Source: an uncultured Gaiellaceae bacterium
GTDB lineage: Bacteria > Actinomycetota > Thermoleophilia > Gaiellales > Gaiellaceae
Length of the DNA: 64,000 nt
Direction of reading: 5' to 3'
NCBI GenBank assembly: GCA_963771185.1
Contig: CAVYSL010000011.1
Coordinates: forward strand, 15,303-79,302
Shown: positions 11,009-52,496 of the stretch, piece by piece
Numbering within the stretch: the stretch's first letter is position 1
Layout of the letters: each line of letters begins with the position of its first letter
The notes under the pieces: model-generated
The model's input: only the letters and a program-made list of their open reading frames with translations
The model's database searches: none
Told to the model about the DNA's origin: nothing
Position numbers and translations under genes: made by a program

Positions 11009-11617
11009 TTAGAGGAGGGCGTCGAGCCCGACCGTGAGCCCCGGCGGGAGAGAGCGCACCTTCTCCAACGCGAGCAGGACACCCGGGACGTAGGCGTCGC
11101 GCGAAGTGGTGTCGTGCCGGATCGTCAGCGTCTGGCCCGGCCCGCCGAAGATCACCTCCTGGTGGGCGACGAGGCCCGGCAGCCGGACGGAATGGATCGG
11201 CGTGCCTGCCGGCAGCAGCGCCGCCGTTGCTTTCGCCGTCCCCGAGGGCGCGTCCAGCTTCTGGTCGTGGTGGAGCTCGACGATCTCGGCGTGCGGCAGC
11301 AGCTTCCCGGCCTCCGCTGCGAAGCGCATCATCAGCACCGCTCCGAGCGCGAAGTTGGGCGCGTAGAAGACGGGCAGCTCGTGCACCCGCGCGAGCGCGG
11401 CGACCCGCTCCTCGTTGAAGCCGGTCGTCCCGACCACGACCGGGACGCCGTCCTCGAGCGCCACCCTGACGTTCTCCTCGACCGCCTCGGGCCGCGTGAA
11501 GTCGACGGCGACCTCGGCGTCGTGGGTCGACTCGACGAGCTCGTGCCCGGCGGCCTCGAGCGCCGGCGCGAGCACGGAGCCGACCTTGCCGCGGCGGCCG
11601 AAGAGGACGACTTTCAC
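11009..11617 (-). CDS. dapB: 4-hydroxy-tetrahydrodipicolinate reductase (short form, about 202 aa)
   Basis: The tail of ORF 11009-11968 reads VKVVLFGRRGKVGS...ELHHDQKLDAPSGTA... (DapB signature E-L-H-H-x-x-K-x-D-A-P-S-G-T-A). GTG at 11617 overlaps the M16 peptidase stop (GTGA). Confidence 0.88.
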   Translation of the reverse strand: MKVVLFGRRGKVGSVLAPALEAAGHELVESTHDAEVAVDFTRPEAVEENVRVALEDGVPVVVGTTGFNEERVAALARVHELPVFYAPNFALGAVLMMRFAAEAGKLLPHAEIVELHHDQKLDAPSGTAKATAALLPAGTPIHSVRLPGLVAHQEVIFGGPGQTLTIRHDTTSRDAYVPGVLLALEKVRSLPPGLTVGLDALL

Positions 11618-12900
11618 GCGGCGGCGCGCTCCACCAGCGCGGGGTTGACGCGCTCGATCGCCGTGCGGAAGCGCGACTCGGAGGGACCGATCCCTGCGGC
11701 GGAGAGCCGGTCGAGCCGGAGCAGGTCGGCGGCGAGCTCGGCGACGTCGTCGGCCGTGACCGCCTCGACCCGGGCGACGAGCTCGTCGAGCGAGAGCAGG
11801 TCGGTATCGCTGATCAGCGACTTCCCGAGCCGGCTCATCCGGTTCGACGTCGACTCGAGGGAGAGCAGCATCCGGCCCTTCAAGTTCTCCTGTGCGCGCT
11901 CGAGCTCCCCCGGCCTGACGTTCCCGGCTGCGACGTCCGCGAGCTCGCGCGCGACGATCTCGAAGCACTCGACGAGGTTCTCCTCGCGCGTGCCGACGTA
12001 AAGCCCGATCTGGCCCGAGTCGGAGTACTGGGAGGCGAAGCTGTAGACCGAATAGGCCATCCCGCGCTTCTCGCGGATCTCCTGGAAGAGCCGCGACGAC
12101 GCGGAGCCGCCGATGATCGAGTCGAGCAGCGAGGCGGCGAAGCGTCGCTCGTCGCGGCGCGAGATCCCGGGCGCACCCAGGCAGACGTGGTACTGCTCCG
12201 TCGCCTTCCGCTGGAAGCGGTAGCCGGGTGGCGGCACGCGTCCGAACGGCTTCCGCGCGCGGCGCGGGTTCGACTCGGTCGCGGGCAGCCGGGCGCCGAG
12301 CAGCTCGACGACACGGTCGTGCGTGACGTTTCCGGCGGCTGCGACGACGATGTTGTCGGCCGCGTAGGCCGCTCGGTGGTACGCGGTCAGCGCCTTCCGG
12401 CTGACGCTCGAGATCACCTCGGCGCGGCCGATCACGGGCCGGCCGATCGGGTGACCGCCGAAGATCGCCTCAGCGACGACGTCGTGAACGAGGTCCTGCG
12501 GGTTGTCGTCGACCATCGCGATCTCTTCGAGCACGACCTCGCGCTCGGAGTCGATCTCGGCGAAGGCGGGCTCGTACACCATCCCGGCCATCACGTCGAG
12601 CGCCGGCTCGAGCCGGTCATCGGGGACGCGGGCGTAGACGAGCGTCGTCTCGCGCGACGTGGCCGCGTTCAGCTCGCCGCCGAGACCGTCGAAGATCTCT
12701 GCGATCTCCTGCGCGGAGTGCGTGCTCGTGCCCTTGAAGAGCAGGTGCTCGATGAAGTGGGAAACACCCGCGCGCGCGTCCGTCTCGTCGCGAGAGCCGG
12801 TGCCGATCCAGAAGCCGAACGAGACCGAGCGCACGTTCGGGACGTGCTCGGTGATCACGCGCTCGCCGGTCGGGAGCGTCGAGAGGTCGTACGGCTGCAT
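11614..12900 (-). CDS. M16-family (insulinase/PepR-like) zinc peptidase
   Basis: 428-aa ORF with the inverted zinc motif HFIEH (HxxEH) near the N-terminus. Its position next to dapB matches many Actinobacteria. Confidence 0.9.
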   Translation of the reverse strand: MQPYDLSTLPTGERVITEHVPNVRSVSFGFWIGTGSRDETDARAGVSHFIEHLLFKGTSTHSAQEIAEIFDGLGGELNAATSRETTLVYARVPDDRLEPALDVMAGMVYEPAFAEIDSEREVVLEEIAMVDDNPQDLVHDVVAEAIFGGHPIGRPVIGRAEVISSVSRKALTAYHRAAYAADNIVVAAAGNVTHDRVVELLGARLPATESNPRRARKPFGRVPPPGYRFQRKATEQYHVCLGAPGISRRDERRFAASLLDSIIGGSASSRLFQEIREKRGMAYSVYSFASQYSDSGQIGLYVGTREENLVECFEIVARELADVAAGNVRPGELERAQENLKGRMLLSLESTSNRMSRLGKSLISDTDLLSLDELVARVEAVTADDVAELAADLLRLDRLSAAGIGPSESRFRTAIERVNPALVERAAA

Positions 12901-12927
12901 CGGCGGATCCTAGCTCCGCCTGCCCGC

Positions 12928-12956
12928 TTGACATCCGTCGGCGTTCGTACTTAGGT
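12928..12956 (+). promoter_or_regulatory. candidate sigma-70-type promoter of the Hcp-like gene
   Basis: Perfect -35 TTGACA (12928-12933), a 17-bp spacer, then a weak -10 TTAGGT (12951-12956). This is followed by SD GGAAGGGGGG (12965-12974). Confidence 0.35.
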
Positions 12957-12979
12957 CCCCCGCAGGAAGGGGGGAAGCC

Positions 12980-13462
12980 ACGGCCGCCATCGACTACTTC
13001 CTGAAGCTGGACGGAATCTCGGGCGAGAGCAAGGACTCGAAGCACAAGGGCGAGATCGAGGTCCTGTCGTTCACGTTCGGCGAGACGCGGAGCGGCTCAT
13101 CCGGCAGCGTCGGCGGCGGCGCCGGCAAGGTCGAGATGACCGACTTCTCCTTCACCGCGCGGACGAGCAAGGCGTCGCCCCAGCTCTTCCTGCAATGCGC
13201 GCAGGGCAAGCACATCAAGCAGGCGATCCTGACCGTCCGCAAGGCCGGCGGGTCGCAGCAGGAGTACCTGATCATCAAGCTGAACGACGTGCTCGTCTCC
13301 AGCTATGCGCTCGGCTCCGGCGAGGGCGAGAGCGAGCCGCACGATGCCTTCGCGCTCAACTTCGTCAAGCTCTCGTACGACTACAAGCCGCAGAAGGCGG
13401 ACGGCTCGCTCGACGCGCCGGTGCACGCCGGCTGGGACCTGTCGAAGAACGTCAAGATCTGA
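12980..13462 (+). CDS. hcp: Hcp1-family (type VI secretion tube protein-like, PF05638-like) protein; no canonical start codon at the expected position
   Basis: The frame is open from 12932. It reads (T)AAIDYFLKLDGISGESKDSKHKGEIEVLSFTFG...FSFTARTSKASPQLFLQCAQGKHIKQAILTVRKAG...YLIIKLNDVLVSSY...FALNFVKLSYDY. This closely resembles the Hcp consensus MA-ID-FLK-DGI-GES-D-KHK-EI-V-S. The ORF track only reports the internal ATG at 13136. Confidence 0.75.
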   Translation, partial: TAAIDYFLKLDGISGESKDSKHKGEIEVLSFTFGETRSGSSGSVGGGAGKVEMTDFSFTARTSKASPQLFLQCAQGKHIKQAILTVRKAGGSQQEYLIIKLNDVLVSSYALGSGEGESEPHDAFALNFVKLSYDYKPQKADGSLDAPVHAGWDLSKNVKI

Positions 13463-14871
13463 AGCCGCCTCCCGTCCCGCCGGCGGCCGAGACCGCAGCG
13501 CGACTGCGGGAGGAGCTCGCGGCCGCGGACTACACCGGCGTCGGGATCGCGCGGCGCCTGCACACGAGCGGCGAACCGATTTTCACGCACGTCGACCTGG
13601 AGGTCTACCGGCGCCGGCTCGCTGCCGTGCCCGATCGCCTCTCGCTGCTGATCTCGCTCCTCCTCCTCGGCGACCCCGCGCCGCCCGACGAGCTCGCGCC
13701 GCTGCTGGTCGAGGCAGAGCTCGCCGAGGAGCGCGACGGCTCGCTGCACGGGCTCGCCCGTGTCGTCCCGCACGACGACCTCCTGATCGCGTCCGACCGG
13801 CTCGACGTCGACGACGCGGACCGCGTCGCAGGCGTCCATCGACCATCGGCTGTGCTCGCCCACCTGACGGTCCGCGAGCCGGTCGACCGGGCGCTCGACC
13901 TCTGCACCGGGAACGGGATCCAGGCGCTCCTGCTCTCGCGCCACGCCCGGCATGTCGTCGCGACCGACGTGAACGAGCGCGCGCTCGGCTTCGCCCGCCT
14001 CAACCTAACGCTGAACGACGTCGCGAACGTCGAGCTCCGGCAGGGCAGTCTCTTGGATCCGGTCGTCGGCGAGACGTTTCATTGCATCGCCTGCAACCCG
14101 CCCTACGTCGTCTCGCCGGACGCCGCGTACACCTTCCGCGACAGCGGCCTCCCCGGCGACCGCGTCAGCGAGCTGCTCGCCCGCGGTCTGCCCGCTCTGC
14201 TCGAGCCGGGCGGCTTCGCCACCCTGATGGCGAGCTGGGCACAAGCAGGGGACGACCCCGCCGTGCGACCGCGCGAGTGGCTCGACGGCTGCGGCTGCGA
14301 CGCCTGGATCCTGCACACGACCACCGACGACCCGCTCTCGAACGCGGCCGCGTGGACGCGGGACGCAGTGGACGGCGCGAACGAGTTCGCGGCCGCGCTC
14401 GATCGCTGGACGGGGTACTACGACGAGCTCGGGATCGAAGCGCTGGCGTACGGCGCGCTCGTGCTGCGGCGCCGCGACGGCGTCAACTGGTCGCGCGGGA
14501 CGAGCCTGCCGCCCCGGCCGCTCGAGTCCGCCTCGACCCACCTGCTGCGGATGTTCGCCGGCGTCGACGCGGCCGCTGCCGGCCCGGAAGCGCTGCTCGC
14601 ACGCCGCCTCGTCGTCGCGCCGACGGCCCGCTTCGAGCAGGTCGTCTCGCCGGGTGACGGCTGGACCGTTGTCAGCGCCACCCTCTCGCTCGAGGACGGG
14701 CTCGGCTTCTCCGCCGACGTCGACGAGCCGACGCTGCGGCTGCTGCGGGCGCTCGACGGCACACGAACCGCCCGCGAGGCGGTGGCCGCCTCGCTCGGCG
14801 AGGACGAGCTGCCCCGCGCAGCCGAGCTCCTGCGCGGGATGCTCGAGACCGGCTTTCTCGTCCTGGAATGA
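13459..14871 (+). CDS. class I SAM-dependent methyltransferase (NPPY-type); start uncertain, possibly CTG at 13459
   Basis: The real-looking sequence begins about AAETAARLREELAAADYTGVGIARRL. It has the SAM-binding motif LDLCTGNGIQAL and the catalytic-type motif IACNPPYV. The only ATG/GTG/TTG in frame upstream is 13195, which overlaps hcp by 268 nt and gives an Arg-rich junk N-terminus. Confidence 0.75.
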   Translation: MKPPPVPPAAETAARLREELAAADYTGVGIARRLHTSGEPIFTHVDLEVYRRRLAAVPDRLSLLISLLLLGDPAPPDELAPLLVEAELAEERDGSLHGLARVVPHDDLLIASDRLDVDDADRVAGVHRPSAVLAHLTVREPVDRALDLCTGNGIQALLLSRHARHVVATDVNERALGFARLNLTLNDVANVELRQGSLLDPVVGETFHCIACNPPYVVSPDAAYTFRDSGLPGDRVSELLARGLPALLEPGGFATLMASWAQAGDDPAVRPREWLDGCGCDAWILHTTTDDPLSNAAAWTRDAVDGANEFAAALDRWTGYYDELGIEALAYGALVLRRRDGVNWSRGTSLPPRPLESASTHLLRMFAGVDAAAAGPEALLARRLVVAPTARFEQVVSPGDGWTVVSATLSLEDGLGFSADVDEPTLRLLRALDGTRTAREAVAASLGEDELPRAAELLRGMLETGFLVLE

Positions 14872-14901
14872 ACGAGGGGGCGGCTTGCGCCGCCCCCTCG
14901 T
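14872..14901. terminator. GC hairpin (13-bp perfect stem) immediately after the methyltransferase stop
   Basis: acgagggggcggc-ttgc-gccgccccctcgt. It lies between convergent genes. No strong T-tract. Confidence 0.5.
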
Positions 14902-14948
14902 AGCCGTTCCCCCGGAGCGCGGCGAAGCCGCGCTGCACCTACCCCGCT

Positions 14949-14977
14949 GATCGGATCCCGCAGAGCGGGATCCGATC
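14949..14977. terminator. GC hairpin (13-bp perfect stem) in the convergent intergenic region
   Basis: gatcggatcccgc-aga-gcgggatccgatc. Confidence 0.4.
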
Positions 14978-14994
14978 GCGAAGACCCCTAAAGG

Positions 14995-15018
14995 AGAGGG
15001 CGGCTCGCGCCGCCCTCT
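14995..15018. terminator. GC hairpin (10-bp stem) downstream of pnp; its sequence is related to the hairpin at 14872
   Basis: agagggcggc-tcgc-gccgccctct. On the minus strand it is followed by CCTTTAGGGG. Confidence 0.45.
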
Positions 15019-15052
15019 GACCAGCTCTTACTCGGACCGATCCCCGAGCTGC

Positions 15053-17530
15053 CTAGTCGCGGCGCGGGCCGCGGTCGCGGCCGCCGCGGCCGCGATCGTC
15101 GCGGCGCGGGCGCTCCTCCTCCGGAGGCCGCGGCGGTGCCGACTTCGCCCGCTCGATCAGCTCCTCCGGCTCGACGAGCCGTCCGTCCTCGTGCTTGTGG
15201 ACGAGCTTGAGGCCGATCCGGCCCCGCGCCTTGTCCACCTCCTGCACGATCACGTCGACGACGTCGCCGCGCGACATCACGTCCTCGATGTGCGCGACAC
15301 GGCCCGGGCCCACGTTCGAGACGTGGAGCAGGCCATCGGTGCCCTTCTTCAGCTCGACGAAGGCGCCGAACTGCGTCGTCTTCACGACCTTGCCGGTGAA
15401 GGTGTCCCCCACCTCGGGCTCCTTGGTCAGCGCCGCGATCGCGCCGATCGCCGCGTCCGCCTTCGTGCCCTCGGTCGCGTAGACGAGGATCGTGCCGTCC
15501 TCCTCGATGTCGATCTGGACGTCGTACTCGGACTCGAGCGAACGGATCGTCTCGCCGCCCTTGCCGATCACCATCCCGATGAAGTCCGGGTTGATCTGGA
15601 TCGAGGAGATCCGCGGCGCGTGCGCCGCCAGCTCCGTCCGGGCCTCGGGCAGCGCCTCGAGCATCCGGTCGAGGATGAAGTTACGGGCCTGATTCGCCTG
15701 ATCGAGAGCGCCGCGCATGATCTCCTGCGTGACGCCGGTGATCTTGATGTCCATCTGCAGCGCGGTGATCCCGTCCCTCGTGCCGGCGACCTTGAAGTCC
15801 ATGTCGCCCAGGTGGTCCTCCGCGCCCTGGATGTCGGTGAGGATGACGTAGTCGTCGCCCTCCTTGACGAGGCCCATCGCGATGCCGGAGACCGGCGCCG
15901 TGATCGGGACACCGGCGTCCATCAGCGCGAGCGTCGAGCCGCAGACCGAGCCCATCGACGAGGAGCCGTTCGACTCCAGCGTCTCCGAGACGATCCGGAT
16001 CGTGTACGGGAAGTCCTCGGCCGACGGGATGACCGCCTCGAGGGCCCGCTGCGCCAGCGCACCGTGGCCGATGTCACGCCGCTTCGGGCCGCGCATGAAG
16101 CCCGTCTCCCCGACCGAGTAGGGCGGGAAGTTGTAGTGATGCATGAAGCGGCGATCGGTTTCGAGCGAGAGGTCGTCGATCCGCTGACCCTCCTTCGCCG
16201 TGCCGAGCGTCAGCAGCGAGAGCACCTGCGTCTGTCCACGCTGGAAGAGACCCGTGCCGTGCGCGCGGGGACTGACCGTCACCTCGCACTCGATCGGGCG
16301 AATCTCGTCCGCTGCGCGGCCGTCGGGCCGGCGCTTCTCGACCGCGATCTTCTTGCGGACGAGATCCTTGTAGATCGCCTCGGCCGCCTTCTTCACGTAG
16401 CTCTTCGTCAGCGCGTCCTTGACGGTGGGGCCTTCGCCCTCGACCGTCGCCGGACCGACCGGGAAGGGCAGCTCGACGGTGTCGACGATCCGGTCGAAGA
16501 GGAGGTGCCGCTTCGCGGACTTGAGCTCCTTCGAATCGTCCTCGGCGTCCGTGAGGGCGCGCAGATCGGACTCGAACTGCTCCCGCACCGGGCCCTCGAC
16601 CGCCGCGAGCCGCAGCTTCTCGAGCAGCAACGCGATGCTCGCCTTGACCTGGACCTGCCGTTGGATGTCCTCGTCGCTCGAGTCCATCGAGAGCTCGGGT
16701 GCGAGCTCGGCGAGGATCGCCGACTCGACCGACGCTGACTCGCGGAGACCATCGTGCTGGATCCGCTCCCAGATCACGTGCCCGTGGGAGCTCTCGATCT
16801 CGGCGGTCACGTCCATGTCGAGCCACTTCGCCTTGCCCGCCTGGCGACGCAGGTCCTCCTGCGCCTCGCAGAGCTTGCGGATCTCCTCGTGTGCCAGCTC
16901 GAACGCCTCGAGCAGGACGTCCTCGGCGACCTCGGACGCACCGGCCTCGATCATCGTCAGGCCGTCCTTCGTGCCGACGACGATCAGGTCGAGCGCCGAC
17001 TCCTCGAAGTTCTGCTCATGGGTCGGGTTGACGACGAACTCGCCGTCGATCCGGCCGATCCGCACCGCGCCGACCGGGCCGAAGAACGGCAGCGGCGAGA
17101 GCATCAGGGCCGCGGAGGCGCCGTTGATGCAGAGGATGTCGTGCGGCGTGACCAGGTCGGCCGACAGGACGGTGCAGATCACCTGCACCTCGTTGCGGAA
17201 GCCCTTCGGCCAGAGCGGCCGGATCGGGCGGTCGATCATGCGTGCGGTCAGCGTCGCGCGCTCGGTGGCGCGGCCCTCCCGCTTGAAGAAGCCGCCCGGG
17301 ATCTTCCCGGCGGCGTACGCGCGCTCTTCGACGTCTACGGTGAGCGGGAAGAAGTCCGCTCCCTCGCGCGCCTCGGGACGGCCGACGGCCGTCGCCAGAA
17401 CCATTGTGTCGCCGGAGCGAACGACGACTGCGCCGTCCGCCTGCTTGGCGAGCTTGCCCGTCTCGAAGGTGATCTCCTTGCCACCGATCTCGACGGACGA
17501 CGAGGCAATCTGCCCCAGTACCGTGCTCAT
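15053..17530 (-). CDS. pnp: polyribonucleotide nucleotidyltransferase (PNPase) with an Arg-rich C-terminal tail
   Basis: 825-aa ORF with two RNase PH domains, KH (GKGGETIRSL) and S1 (GDTFTGKVVKTTQFGAFVEL) domains. Confidence 0.95.
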   Translation of the reverse strand: MSTVLGQIASSSVEIGGKEITFETGKLAKQADGAVVVRSGDTMVLATAVGRPEAREGADFFPLTVDVEERAYAAGKIPGGFFKREGRATERATLTARMIDRPIRPLWPKGFRNEVQVICTVLSADLVTPHDILCINGASAALMLSPLPFFGPVGAVRIGRIDGEFVVNPTHEQNFEESALDLIVVGTKDGLTMIEAGASEVAEDVLLEAFELAHEEIRKLCEAQEDLRRQAGKAKWLDMDVTAEIESSHGHVIWERIQHDGLRESASVESAILAELAPELSMDSSDEDIQRQVQVKASIALLLEKLRLAAVEGPVREQFESDLRALTDAEDDSKELKSAKRHLLFDRIVDTVELPFPVGPATVEGEGPTVKDALTKSYVKKAAEAIYKDLVRKKIAVEKRRPDGRAADEIRPIECEVTVSPRAHGTGLFQRGQTQVLSLLTLGTAKEGQRIDDLSLETDRRFMHHYNFPPYSVGETGFMRGPKRRDIGHGALAQRALEAVIPSAEDFPYTIRIVSETLESNGSSSMGSVCGSTLALMDAGVPITAPVSGIAMGLVKEGDDYVILTDIQGAEDHLGDMDFKVAGTRDGITALQMDIKITGVTQEIMRGALDQANQARNFILDRMLEALPEARTELAAHAPRISSIQINPDFIGMVIGKGGETIRSLESEYDVQIDIEEDGTILVYATEGTKADAAIGAIAALTKEPEVGDTFTGKVVKTTQFGAFVELKKGTDGLLHVSNVGPGRVAHIEDVMSRGDVVDVIVQEVDKARGRIGLKLVHKHEDGRLVEPEELIERAKSAPPRPPEEERPRRDDRGRGGRDRGPRRD

Positions 17531-47127: not shown

Positions 47128-47147
<20 letters not shown>
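46482..47147 (-). CDS. pyrK: dihydroorotate dehydrogenase electron-transfer subunit
   Basis: FAD/NAD-binding fold and the C-terminal 2Fe-2S motif [13 protein letters not shown]...LCVEGPV. Start is at 47147 (MRRELRSV) or 47186. Confidence 0.8.
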
Positions 47148-50304
<3,157 letters not shown>

Positions 50305-52496
50305 TCGAGCGCGGGCCCGAGCCGCCGGACGACGCGGCAGACCTCCGCGTAGGCCTCCTCGTCGAGCGAGGGCGCCGGCAGCACGCACGACGAGTCGCCG
50401 GAGTGGATCCCGGCCTCCTCGACGTGCTCCATCACGGCGCCGATGTGGACGGAGACGCCGTCGCAGAGCGCGTCGACGTCGATCTCGAGCGCGCCCTCGA
50501 GGAAGCGGTCGACGAGGACGGAGCCGCGTGACGCCCGCCATCGCCGCCCGCACCTGCTCGTCGTCGTAGCAGACCCGCATCGCGCGGCCGCCGAGCACGT
50601 AGGAGGGCCGGACGAGCACCGGGTAGCCGACCCGGCCGCGATCTCGACCGCCGCGTCCGGCGCGTCGGCGATCCCCCACTCCGGGCAGCGGATGCCGAGC
50701 TCGGCGAGCAGCCGGCCGAAGCGCTCGCGGTCCTCGGCGAGGTCGACCGCCTCGTACGGCGTGCCGAGCACCTTGAAGCCGGCCGCCTCGATCGCGCGCG
50801 CGAGCTTCAGCGGCGTCTGGCCGCCGAACTGGATCACGACGCCCTCCGGCTGCTCCCGCTCGCAGACCGCGAGCACGTGCTCGACGTCGAGCGGCTCGAA
50901 GTAGAGGCGGTCGGAGGTGTCGTAGTCGGTCGAGACCGTCTCCGGGTTGCAGTTGACCATCATCGCCTCGTAGCCGAGCGCGCGGAAGCTCTGCGCCGCG
51001 TGGACGCAGCAGTAGTCGAACTCGATCCCCTGGCCGATCCGGTTCGGGCCGGAGCCGAGGATGACGACGCGCGGCTTGCCGGTCGCCGGCAGCGGCTCGT
51101 CGGCCTCGCCGCGGGTCGAGTAGTAGTAGTTCGAGTCGGCCGCGACCTCGCCGGCGCAGGAGTCGACGCGGCGGTAGACGCGCTCGCCCTGCGGCGGGCC
51201 GTCGCGCGCGCAGCTGCTCGAGCTCGCGCCGGAACCACGGGTGCAGGTCGTCGGGGAGGTCGTCGAGCGTCGCCCACGGCGTCACCGCGCCCGCGTCGAG
51301 CTCGCGGCTCGACCAACGCCTTCCAGAACGCCTCCTGGAAGGTGCGGCCGATCCCCATCGCCTCGCCGACCGACTTCATCTGCGTGCCGAGCGTCGTGTC
51401 GGCGCCGGGGAACTTCTCGAACGCGAAGCGCGGGAACTTGACGACGACGTAGTCGAGCGTCGGCTCGAAGCTCGCCGGCGTCGTCTTCGTCAGGTCGTTC
51501 GGGATCTCGTCGAGCGTGTAGCCGACGGCGAGCTTGGCGGCGACCTTCGCGATCGGGTAGCCGGTCGCCTTCGAGGCGAGCGCCGACGAGCGCGAGACGC
51601 GCGGGTTCATCTCGATCACGCGCAGCTCGCCGGTCTCGCGGTCGCGCGCGAACTGGATGTTCGAGCCGCCGGTCTCGACGCCGACGGCGCGGATGACGGC
51701 GATCGCCGCGTCGCGGAGCTCCTGGTAGGCCTCGTCGGAGAGCGTCATCTGCGGCGCGACGGTGACCGAGTCGCCGGTGTGGACGCCCATCGGGTCGAGG
51801 TTCTCGATCGAGCAGACGATCACGACGTTGTCGCGGCGGTCGCGGATCACCTCGAGCTCGAACTCGTCCCAGCCCTTGACCGACTCCTCGACGAGCACCT
51901 GGCCGATCGGGCTCTCGCGCAGGCCGAGCTCGACCTGGGCGCGCAGCTCGGCTGCGGTCGAGACGAAGCCGCCGCCGTGGCCGCCGAGCGTGAACGCCGG
52001 GCCGCACGACCGCGGGCACCGCGACGCCGGCGAGGTCGTCGAGCGAGGTGACGATCCGCGAGCTCGGCACCGCGAGGCCGCAGCTCTGCACCGCCTCGCG
52101 GAAGAGCTCGCGGTCCTCGGCGCGGCGGATCACGTCGACGGGCGCGCCGAGCAGCTCGACGCCGAGCGCGTCGAGGACGCCCTCCTCGGCGAGCTCGATC
52201 GCGAGGTTGAGCGCCGTCTGGCCGCCGAGCGTCGGCAGCAGCGCGTCGGGCCGCTCGCGGCCGAGCACGTCGGCGACGCCCTCGAGGTCGAGCGGCTCGA
52301 GGTAGGTCGCGTCGGCGAAGCCGGGGTCGGTCATGATCGTCGCCGGGTTCGAGTTGACGACGATCGTGCGGAAGCCGTCCTCGCGCAGCACCTTCAGCGC
52401 CTGGCAGCCGGCGTAGTCGAACTCGCACGCCTGCCCGATCACGATCGGGCCGGAGCCGATCAGGCAGATCGACCGGATGTCCTGCCTACGCGGCAT
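50305..52496 (-). pseudogene. carB: second, 3'-truncated and multiply frameshifted carB copy
   Basis: ATG at about 52496 ([30 protein letters not shown] again). CarB-like peptides are scattered over three frames (ORFs 51282-54218, 50960-51898, 50151-50963). It ends at ...VVRRLGPAL, the equivalent of about 47887 in the intact copy. Confidence 0.85.

Follow-up and report, generated by a model that had tools for sequence, protein, structure and literature searches.

A stand-alone Hcp1-type gene of uncultured Gaiellaceae that is probably translated from an ACG codon

Hcp counts as a hallmark protein of type VI secretion systems (T6SS). The gene for Hcp1 of Pseudomonas aeruginosa (PA0085, PDB 1Y12, TssD) lies in the H1-T6SS cluster, and a sheath, a baseplate and a membrane complex assemble and expel its product. 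In Proteobacteria, hcp genes also lie away from the core T6SS cluster, as orphan hcp genes or hcp-vgrG-PAAR islands, which work for a T6SS encoded at another site of their diderm genome and usually include vgrG, PAAR or effector genes (bioRxiv 10.64898/2025.12.03.692189). Here, we describe an Hcp1-type gene situated in a stretch of 64,000 nucleotides (contig CAVYSL010000011.1, hereafter the window) from an uncultured Gaiellaceae bacterium. Unlike hcp1, this gene has no secretion genes nearby, resides in an actinobacterial housekeeping block, is partnered by a methyltransferase gene and starts with ACG; unlike the Proteobacterial islands, the window contains no vgrG, PAAR or effector gene. We consider it likely that this is a functional, vertically inherited orphan gene which is translated from the near-cognate ACG and is probably coupled to the methyltransferase gene downstream.

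ACG start codons are known from eukaryotic viruses, namely those of VP2 in adeno-associated virus and C' in paramyxoviruses, and organellar ACG codons are edited to AUG. As in the window, ACG is found there at the initiation position of a conserved protein. However, the viral and organellar examples depend on a Kozak context and eukaryotic scanning, or else on C-to-U editing, whereas in the window a bacterial Shine-Dalgarno (SD) sequence 5 nt upstream would position the ribosome and a cDNA contig is unedited. In Escherichia coli, initiation from ACG was measured at about 0.1-1% of that from AUG, with an N-terminal methionine identified by mass spectrometry (bioRxiv 10.1101/063800), whereas the ACG start proposed here is based on comparative evidence. 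Initiation factor 3 (IF3) discriminates against near-cognate start codons (PMC9723500), and regulatory non-canonical starts have been described in bacteria, such as the AUU of infC, which is autoregulated through IF3, the GTG of lacI and others (PMC11445065). Like the ACG of the window, these are weak codons retained by evolution, with a low and potentially regulated translation rate. The natural bacterial examples nevertheless use AUU, AUC, AUA, CUG, GUG or UUG, which all belong to genetic code table 11, whereas ACG is outside this table. Our literature searches on this subject retrieved no natural bacterial gene starting with ACG.

The frame under study runs on the forward strand over 160 codons, with ACG as the first codon and TGA (13460-13462) as the last.

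12980..13462, + strand: Hcp1-type coding sequence, 160 codons and TGA (PF05638 and 1Y12 matches, AlphaFold2 fold, omega)
12980..12982, + strand: ACG, proposed near-cognate initiation codon, at the site of ATG or GTG in relatives
13136..13138, + strand: ATG of codon 53, first canonical in-frame start, used by gene callers and not considered to be the real start

The codon-position GC pattern of this frame is that of a real gene (GC3 0.93 and GC2 0.45, in a window of 70.8% GC). The translated product covered the whole PF05638 (T6SS_HCP) model (positions 1-129 of 129), with a score of 123.4 bits for a cutoff of 23.5 and an E-value of 9.4e-36. This agrees with the initial annotation, made from the letters of the window, which had recognized the Hcp pattern along the whole length of the protein. 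The profile search suggested there gave a divided answer, as the NCBIfam subfamily model of TssD (TIGR03344), in contrast to PF05638, was matched at 50.7 bits over positions 28-154 of 167, under its curated cutoff of 58.9. The nearest solved structure is that of P. aeruginosa Hcp1 (49% identity over the full length, E-value of 9e-43), with which the window protein shares its length, its predicted fold, a conserved GGGAGKV loop and the absence of a signal peptide.

Structure prediction, also suggested in the initial annotation, yielded the Hcp fold. The AlphaFold2 monomer model had a mean predicted local distance difference test (pLDDT) score of 83.3, low confidence being confined to a Gly/Ser-rich loop (residues 39-47), and it displayed an Hcp-type beta-barrel with a single helix and an extended loop, which could be superposed on a solved Hcp. 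When submitted to Foldseek, it was aligned to 1Y12 with a TM-score of 0.83 and an E-value of 6.5e-17 at 49% identity, and almost all of the top 50 matches were Hcp proteins or Hcp1 fusion constructs. PHROGs placed the protein in phrog_27303, a family with no assigned function, which is uninformative, and PADLOC returned no match for Hcp. We conclude that the window encodes a bona fide Hcp1-type protein; from its 49% identity to Hcp1, it is expected to form a hexameric ring.

As had been noticed in the initial annotation, the ACG at 12980 stands exactly where Hcp proteins have their methionine: the other Gaiellaceae have ATG at this position, or GTG in the case of locus L006. ACG was found at the homologous position in the window, in L001, L007, L078, L079 and L080-L084, and in ten further JGI contigs (L087-L096). 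In total, more than 20 independent contigs or metagenome-assembled genomes (MAGs) from JGI, ENA, Logan and NCBI carry ACG, and the frame is intact in all of them. These alleles differ from each other in codons 2-3 (GCC GCC, GCA GCG or GCC GCG) and in the lengths of the upstream C-run and G-run. Among the Logan DNA contigs spanning position 12981, which came from eight soil or sediment runs of eight studies, ACG was present in ten out of 11 and ATG in the remaining one (run X16). A pattern scan of a metagenome contig collection returned no ACG allele; this collection is devoid of the known carriers L001 and L080, so that the scan is uninformative on the frequency of the allele.

All standard gene callers mis-annotate the ACG alleles, since ACG is not among the start codons that they accept. 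No canonical table 11 start is found at the homologous position, which is occupied by ACG, and the listing of open reading frames (ORFs) of the window gives 13136..13462 only, as ATG 13136 is the first ATG, GTG or TTG in frame. The database homologs that seem to be N-terminally truncated (P0084, P0087, P0089 and P0098) are without exception ACG alleles in which the N-terminal coding region is intact, and the 197-residue P0002 is an ACG allele stretched to an upstream GTG. In the two protein clusters at 90% identity represented by P0087 and P0002, 21 of the 22 members are mis-called (108, 126, 130, 132-135 or 197 residues, each length corresponding to a different false start) and one has 161 residues. 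The public annotations of JGI, ENA, NCBI and Logan thus hold ACG alleles under false lengths; L007, for instance, is contig CAWGAP010000008.1.

The genomic setting of the gene was established by Pfam scans of about 54 ORFs of the window, from which both the gene order and the negative result on secretion genes are derived.

11614-12900, - strand: M16 peptidase (Pfam)
15053-17530, - strand: PNPase (Pfam)

The Hcp gene lies between the M16 peptidase gene and the methyltransferase and pnp genes, within a nusA-infB-truB-rpsO-pnp-dapB core block whose order is nusA, infB, rbfA, truB, ribF, rpsO and pnp, then the methyltransferase and Hcp genes, then the M16 peptidase gene, dapB, dapA and the RNase J gene. 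On one flank, going towards Hcp, the window encodes ABC nucleoside uptake, FtsK, a nucleoside hydrolase, RNase J, DapA, DapB and the M16 peptidase. Beyond Hcp and the methyltransferase, both on the forward strand, come PNPase, S15, RibF, TruB, an NrnA-like protein, RbfA, IF2, NusA and RimP, and farther on a PilB-like ATPase, a MoxR/DUF58/transglutaminase group, CoaBC, Gmk, PyrD, CarB and CarA. The nearest relatives of the protein are encoded in MAGs of Gaiellaceae (Actinomycetota, Thermoleophilia). In this family, where the loci other than the window and L086 were compared for three neighbours (M16 peptidase, PNPase and methyltransferase), the order M16 - Hcp - methyltransferase - PNPase is retained throughout, and therefore the Hcp gene is a vertically inherited resident of the housekeeping block. 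More remote homologs, with 45-58% identity, were found in Chloroflexota, Patescibacteria, other Actinomycetota, Acidobacteriota and Proteobacteria. With regard to the survey of actinobacterial orthologs proposed in the initial annotation, the gene is kept across Gaiellaceae and has homologs in other Actinomycetota. Its description there as a stand-alone member of the Hcp1 family, set in a core region of actinobacterial type, was correct in both identity and context.

An Hcp without its machine could still be the tube subunit of a T6SS or of another contractile injection system encoded elsewhere, the gene being an orphan by its position alone. Unlinked hcp genes are common in Proteobacteria, and the protein is 49% identical to a bona fide tube protein. 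A survey of secretion systems found no diderm-type systems in monoderm genomes (PMC4793230), which speaks against this reading, but Gaiella occulta, the only cultured Gaiella, stains Gram-negative (PMC6741124). For this reason the envelope type of the host is an assumption, and of the "monoderm high-GC lineage" put forward in the initial annotation the actinobacterial part is correct (Gaiellaceae) whereas the monoderm part is assumed. Against a distant T6SS stands the Pfam scan, in which no T6SS or contractile-injection family was detected over the 64-kb window, in line with the earlier observation that TssB/C, VgrG, ClpV and baseplate genes are missing there. Likewise, no T6SS or contractile-injection family was found within 10 kb on either side of Hcp in the syntenic Gaiellaceae relative L086, and no T6SS family recurred among 87 ORFs flanking Hcp homologs at 11 loci of three monoderm-type phyla (Actinomycetota, Chloroflexota and Patescibacteria). 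In addition, the conserved partner of Hcp is a methyltransferase, neither VgrG nor PAAR, and the score of the TssD model is under its cutoff. To our knowledge, no T6SS has been described in the host actinobacterial lineage, and our literature search on Hcp or T6SS in Gaiellales or monoderms retrieved nothing specific. From what the window, the flanks of L086 and these 11 loci show, a T6SS located elsewhere in the genome, distant from Hcp, is therefore judged unlikely, and so is the tube role that it would imply.

The position of the start codon was examined with the help of the following upstream elements.

12928..12933, + strand: TTGACA, -35-like hexamer holding the in-frame TGA 12929-12931, kept in nearly all Gaiellaceae relatives
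12952..12957, + strand: TAGGTC, -10-like hexamer 18 nt past the -35-like hexamer, part of the block GTACTTAGGTC, which is found in all relatives
12965..12974, + strand: Shine-Dalgarno sequence GGAAGGGGGG, followed by the 5-nt spacer AAGCC and by ACG

In the window, the TGA contained in TTGACA closes the Hcp frame upstream; this stop, the first canonical in-frame start at 13136 and the good SD 5 nt before ACG had all been pointed out in the initial annotation and were found again here. Among the ACG alleles the G-run of the SD contains 5 or 6 G, the C-run being variable as well, and this variation by 1 nt means that the SD region is non-coding. Downstream of ACG, indels are absent up to the loop, and those of the loop are in multiples of three. 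As the frame is not kept upstream and is kept downstream, coding begins between 12975 and about 12989. In this interval ACG is the sole codon which differs from AUG by one mismatch, and it is placed 5 nt past the SD. Four features expected of a functional near-cognate start are observed here, namely the SD distance, the conservation of the codon, purifying selection downstream and the absence of a conserved upstream frame.

It could be argued that the real start is another near-cognate codon, either ATC 12989 (codon 4) or the CTG of codon 8 or 10, ACG-GCC-GCC being then part of the leader. AUC and CUG are somewhat better initiators than ACG in E. coli (1-2% of AUG; 10.1101/063800), and the N-terminus of the protein has been placed by sequence comparison. 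However, ATC is located 14 nt and the CTG codons at least 26 nt from the SD, as opposed to 5 nt for ACG, and all relatives have their ATG or GTG at the ACG position. The two changes observed in codons 2-3 within the ACG clade are both synonymous third-position changes, the residues D5, Y6 and F7 are invariant across homologs, and codon 8 is CTC in L080-L083, hence it is not conserved as a start. We regard a start at one of these other codons as quite improbable. Initiation at ACG is better supported by the comparison than initiation at ATC 12989, because of the distance of the latter from the SD and the ATG of the relatives; the proposal of a non-canonical start at either codon, made in the initial annotation, is thus retained, with ACG preferred to ATC.

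The strength of the SD also differs between alleles. With an assumed anti-SD sequence, the predicted SD:anti-SD duplexes have energies of -14.9 to -16.0 kcal/mol for the ACG alleles, compared with -8.6 to -12.6 kcal/mol for the ATG alleles, and the stronger pairing in the former may possibly be a compensation for the weak codon. A scan of 12800-15100 with an E. coli-type consensus called no sigma-70 promoter or terminator site, so that the promoter assignment is founded on conservation. In L006 (9930-10000) and L008 (1940-2012), the deepest-branching Gaiellaceae loci, the start codon (GTG or ATG) is found 7-9 nt past TAGGTC in a leaderless-like arrangement, while all other relatives have an inserted leader bearing the SD. 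This layout supports a -10 role for TAGGTC and a transcription start site near 12964-12967, which we infer for the window as well. An Rfam scan of 12500-15200 gave sub-threshold chance matches only, with no riboswitch or leader RNA, and no tRNA gene is present in the window, hence no variant initiator tRNA was seen there.

Selection on the N-terminal codons was studied by counting substitutions among ACG alleles alone, using a simple count of distinct states; owing to this restriction, the changes counted are posterior to the appearance of ACG.

Codons 2-35 of ACG alleles: 12 synonymous and 1 non-synonymous changes, omega ~0.02, P 1e-7
Codons 2-52 of ACG alleles: 19 synonymous and 9 non-synonymous changes, omega ~0.15, P 9e-7
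Whole gene, ACG alleles: 36 synonymous and 28 non-synonymous changes, omega 0.24, P 2e-8

In codons 2-52, the non-synonymous changes fall mostly in the variable loop. Pairwise omega values within the ACG group were 0.13-0.38 in most pairs and about 0.7 in two close pairs involving L078, compared with 0.20-0.59 among the relatives starting with ATG or GTG, so that the constraint is no weaker in the ACG group. In spite of the small counts, the direction of this result is unambiguous. The purifying selection acting on codons 2-52 in the ACG clade strongly disfavours both a start at the internal ATG 13136 and a pseudogene.

The latter possibility had been mentioned in the initial annotation as a recently inactivated gene, whose open frame would not yet have decayed. 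It is suggested by the loss of the canonical start codon, by the poor initiation from ACG in E. coli and by the failure of gene callers to predict the full protein. On the other hand, none of the more than 20 ACG alleles has a broken frame, the excess of synonymous changes (both over codons 2-35 and overall) arose after ACG did, and the constraint is not relaxed with respect to the ATG relatives. The SD, the spacer and the promoter-like block are conserved, the ACG alleles span lineages in which the neighbouring methyltransferase gene is just 84% identical at the DNA level, and the gene is transcribed, as reported below. It is thus very unlikely that the ACG alleles are pseudogenes.

Metatranscriptome contigs X26, X28 and X31 are 97-100% identical to parts of the Hcp gene, and the existence of such near-identical contigs indicates that the gene is transcribed in soils. 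The cDNA contig X29, which spans 12977-13140, carries ACG, and so does a contig of run X25. These sequences bear on the idea that C-to-U editing might turn ACG into AUG in the transcript, as in plant organelles. Among edits that create a start, the classical one turns ACG into AUG. Moreover, at the site where the methyltransferase of L080 and L004 is called from GTG, the window has GCG, which is another T-to-C difference at position 2 of a codon. Yet this GTG is not a conserved start, most lineages being without it, and no sign of editing at 12981 was seen at the level of assembled contigs, which cannot reveal partial editing. We know of no mRNA editing of the ACG-to-AUG kind in bacteria, and we give this explanation hardly any credit. 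As for a sequencing or assembly error at 12981, a single transition separates ACG from ATG and frameshift-type errors do occur in the related long-read MAG loci L070 and L086, but the recurrence of ACG in so many independent assemblies, with differing synonymous variants on both sides, and in ten of the 11 spanning Logan contigs excludes the base error considered in the initial annotation, and its probability is practically nil.

The gene following Hcp encodes a methyltransferase, whose start was also considered.

13459..14871, + strand: S-adenosylmethionine-dependent amino-methyltransferase with a DUF7059 - MTS - DUF7782 organization and NPPY at residue 213 (domain matches)
13459..13461, + strand: CTG overlapping the Hcp stop (C-TGA), candidate coupled start, found in 18/18 loci (weak evidence)

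This ORF of 470 codons, directly after Hcp, is distantly similar to the HemK/PrmC family. In every Gaiellaceae locus that was examined it comes next after Hcp, and a homolog with 46% identity adjoins Hcp in L010 and in the Limnocylindria MAG L011. PADLOC matched its sequence with the catalytic core of mad2 only; given that Hcp had no match, the pair corresponds to no known defence system. No conserved canonical start was found for the methyltransferase, the first one after the Hcp stop in the window being GTG 13627. Codons 14-56, upstream of this GTG, are nevertheless under purifying selection (for instance 16.5 synonymous and 6.5 non-synonymous changes in comparison with L080, P 1e-5), and DUF7059 begins at residue 22. 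The 56 codons before GTG 13627 (13459-13630 in the window) are conserved in the same region of L001-L009, L080 and L085. As there is no conserved canonical start and the ORF opens at or next to the Hcp stop, synthesis of the methyltransferase is probably coupled to the translation of Hcp. The CTG at 13459-13461 is a candidate for a termination-reinitiation start, with the reservation that codon bias alone could produce the C-TGA motif at the Hcp stop.

A Pro-rich, linker-like stretch (KPPPVPPAAE) is encoded just past the Hcp stop and had prompted the idea of a fusion of the two proteins by programmed -1 frameshifting. This idea was rejected: no slippery heptamer precedes the TGA, and no fused homolog was present among the best 120 of 6027 matches. 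In L011 (9395-10483; Limnocylindria, Chloroflexota), apparently two tandem Hcp-like genes come right after the homologous methyltransferase gene.

Regarding the history of the alleles, 200 of 200 bootstrap replicates united the ACG alleles and two ATG loci in one clade, with L002 nested and L003 as sister. This fits a single origin of ACG and, later, one or more returns to ATG through reversion or recombination. At the DNA level, the window and L080 are 94.8% identical in Hcp and 84.0% identical in the adjacent methyltransferase gene, whereas the corresponding values with L004 are 86.5% and 83.5%. As L080 and L004 are about equally far from the window in the methyltransferase gene but Hcp is much closer in L080, a movement of Hcp alleles between lineages is suggested. 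In the metagenome of run X16, ACG and ATG alleles occur on near-identical sequence. L002 combines a coding sequence similar to that of the window with an upstream region similar to that of L080, suggesting recombination at the locus.

Other observations were made in the window. The divergent M16 peptidase gene has TAGGAT (within 12901-12915, - strand) 6 nt before its ATG 12900, a layout of leaderless actinobacterial mRNA, and this motif is conserved in relatives. For the DapB ORF (11009-11968, - strand), positions 60-124 of the 124 of the DapB_N model only were matched, and in the relative L086 a 198-residue call contains DapB_C alone. In this lineage, the Rossmann part at the N-terminus of DapB seems to be short or divergent, or else the start of the gene is misplaced by the callers. 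At 51995-52496 (- strand), a second fragment resembles the N-terminal part of CarB, corresponding to residues 1-171 of the E. coli protein; the full-length carB (47128-50079) lies about 1.9 kb downstream of it. The fragment shares a long open frame with carA, and a partial duplication, a gene split or a frameshift may account for it. Across about 50-57 kb, the gene finder also gave weak codon-usage scores.

On the basis of these comparisons, we infer initiation at ACG itself, a reduced translational efficiency from this codon and a ring-forming, T6SS-independent role exerted together with the methyltransferase. In the mechanism that we propose, the gene would be transcribed from its own conserved promoter-like block into a short-leader mRNA, the leader consisting almost wholly of the long SD. 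In one clade, the ancestral ATG would have become ACG with translation still beginning there. The 30S subunit would be held by the extended SD while the initiator tRNA pairs with ACG in spite of a mismatch at its middle base. The product would be a normal protein of 160 residues made at a reduced and probably IF3-sensitive rate, so that ACG would act as a translational throttle, and the methyltransferase, starting at or next to the Hcp stop, would be synthesized in a manner coupled to Hcp translation.

Several points weigh against this interpretation. In E. coli, initiation from ACG is very weak, and the codon lies outside genetic code table 11. Its presence is also odd in a gene with a strong SD, a promoter-like block that is both strong and conserved, and a frequent recovery in metatranscriptomes. 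The placing of the N-terminus by comparison, mentioned above in favour of other codons, has to be counted here too. ATG alleles exist inside the clade (L002 and one contig of run X16), so that ACG is not fixed. The anti-SD sequence was assumed and the difference in SD strength is confounded with phylogeny. The promoter and the transcription start site are deduced, the consensus of the scan which called no sigma-70-type site being of the E. coli type. Finally, the substitution counts are small and were obtained by a simple method on sequences that are related and probably recombining.

In a wider proposal, which we put forward tentatively and whose full form we hold to be doubtful, ACG would be an evolution-maintained start outside table 11, an IF3-sensitive throttle combined with an extended SD, and the co-existing ACG and ATG alleles would constitute a heritable expression switch in soil populations; the product would be a T6SS-independent Hcp ring acting with a coupled NPPY methyltransferase in monoderm-type bacteria. 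Possible roles of such a ring are those of a cytoplasmic chaperone or receptor, or of a sponge for incoming T6SS effectors.

In terms of annotation, a conserved gene of an abundant soil lineage is mis-annotated as truncations of 108 to 135 residues or as an extension of 197 residues. The locus provides a concrete natural example of likely ACG initiation in bacteria, and it suggests that similar cases can be detected through purifying selection on codons that precede the first canonical start. The ACG/ATG polymorphism, with its covarying SD strength, offers a natural system for studying the tuning of expression by the start codon. As to Hcp itself, the protein described here is conserved, transcribed and linked to a methyltransferase in an actinobacterial housekeeping locus, which is not a T6SS cluster. 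Orphan Hcp copies are also present in Chloroflexota and Patescibacteria, and together they point to a function of Hcp without a contractile machine.

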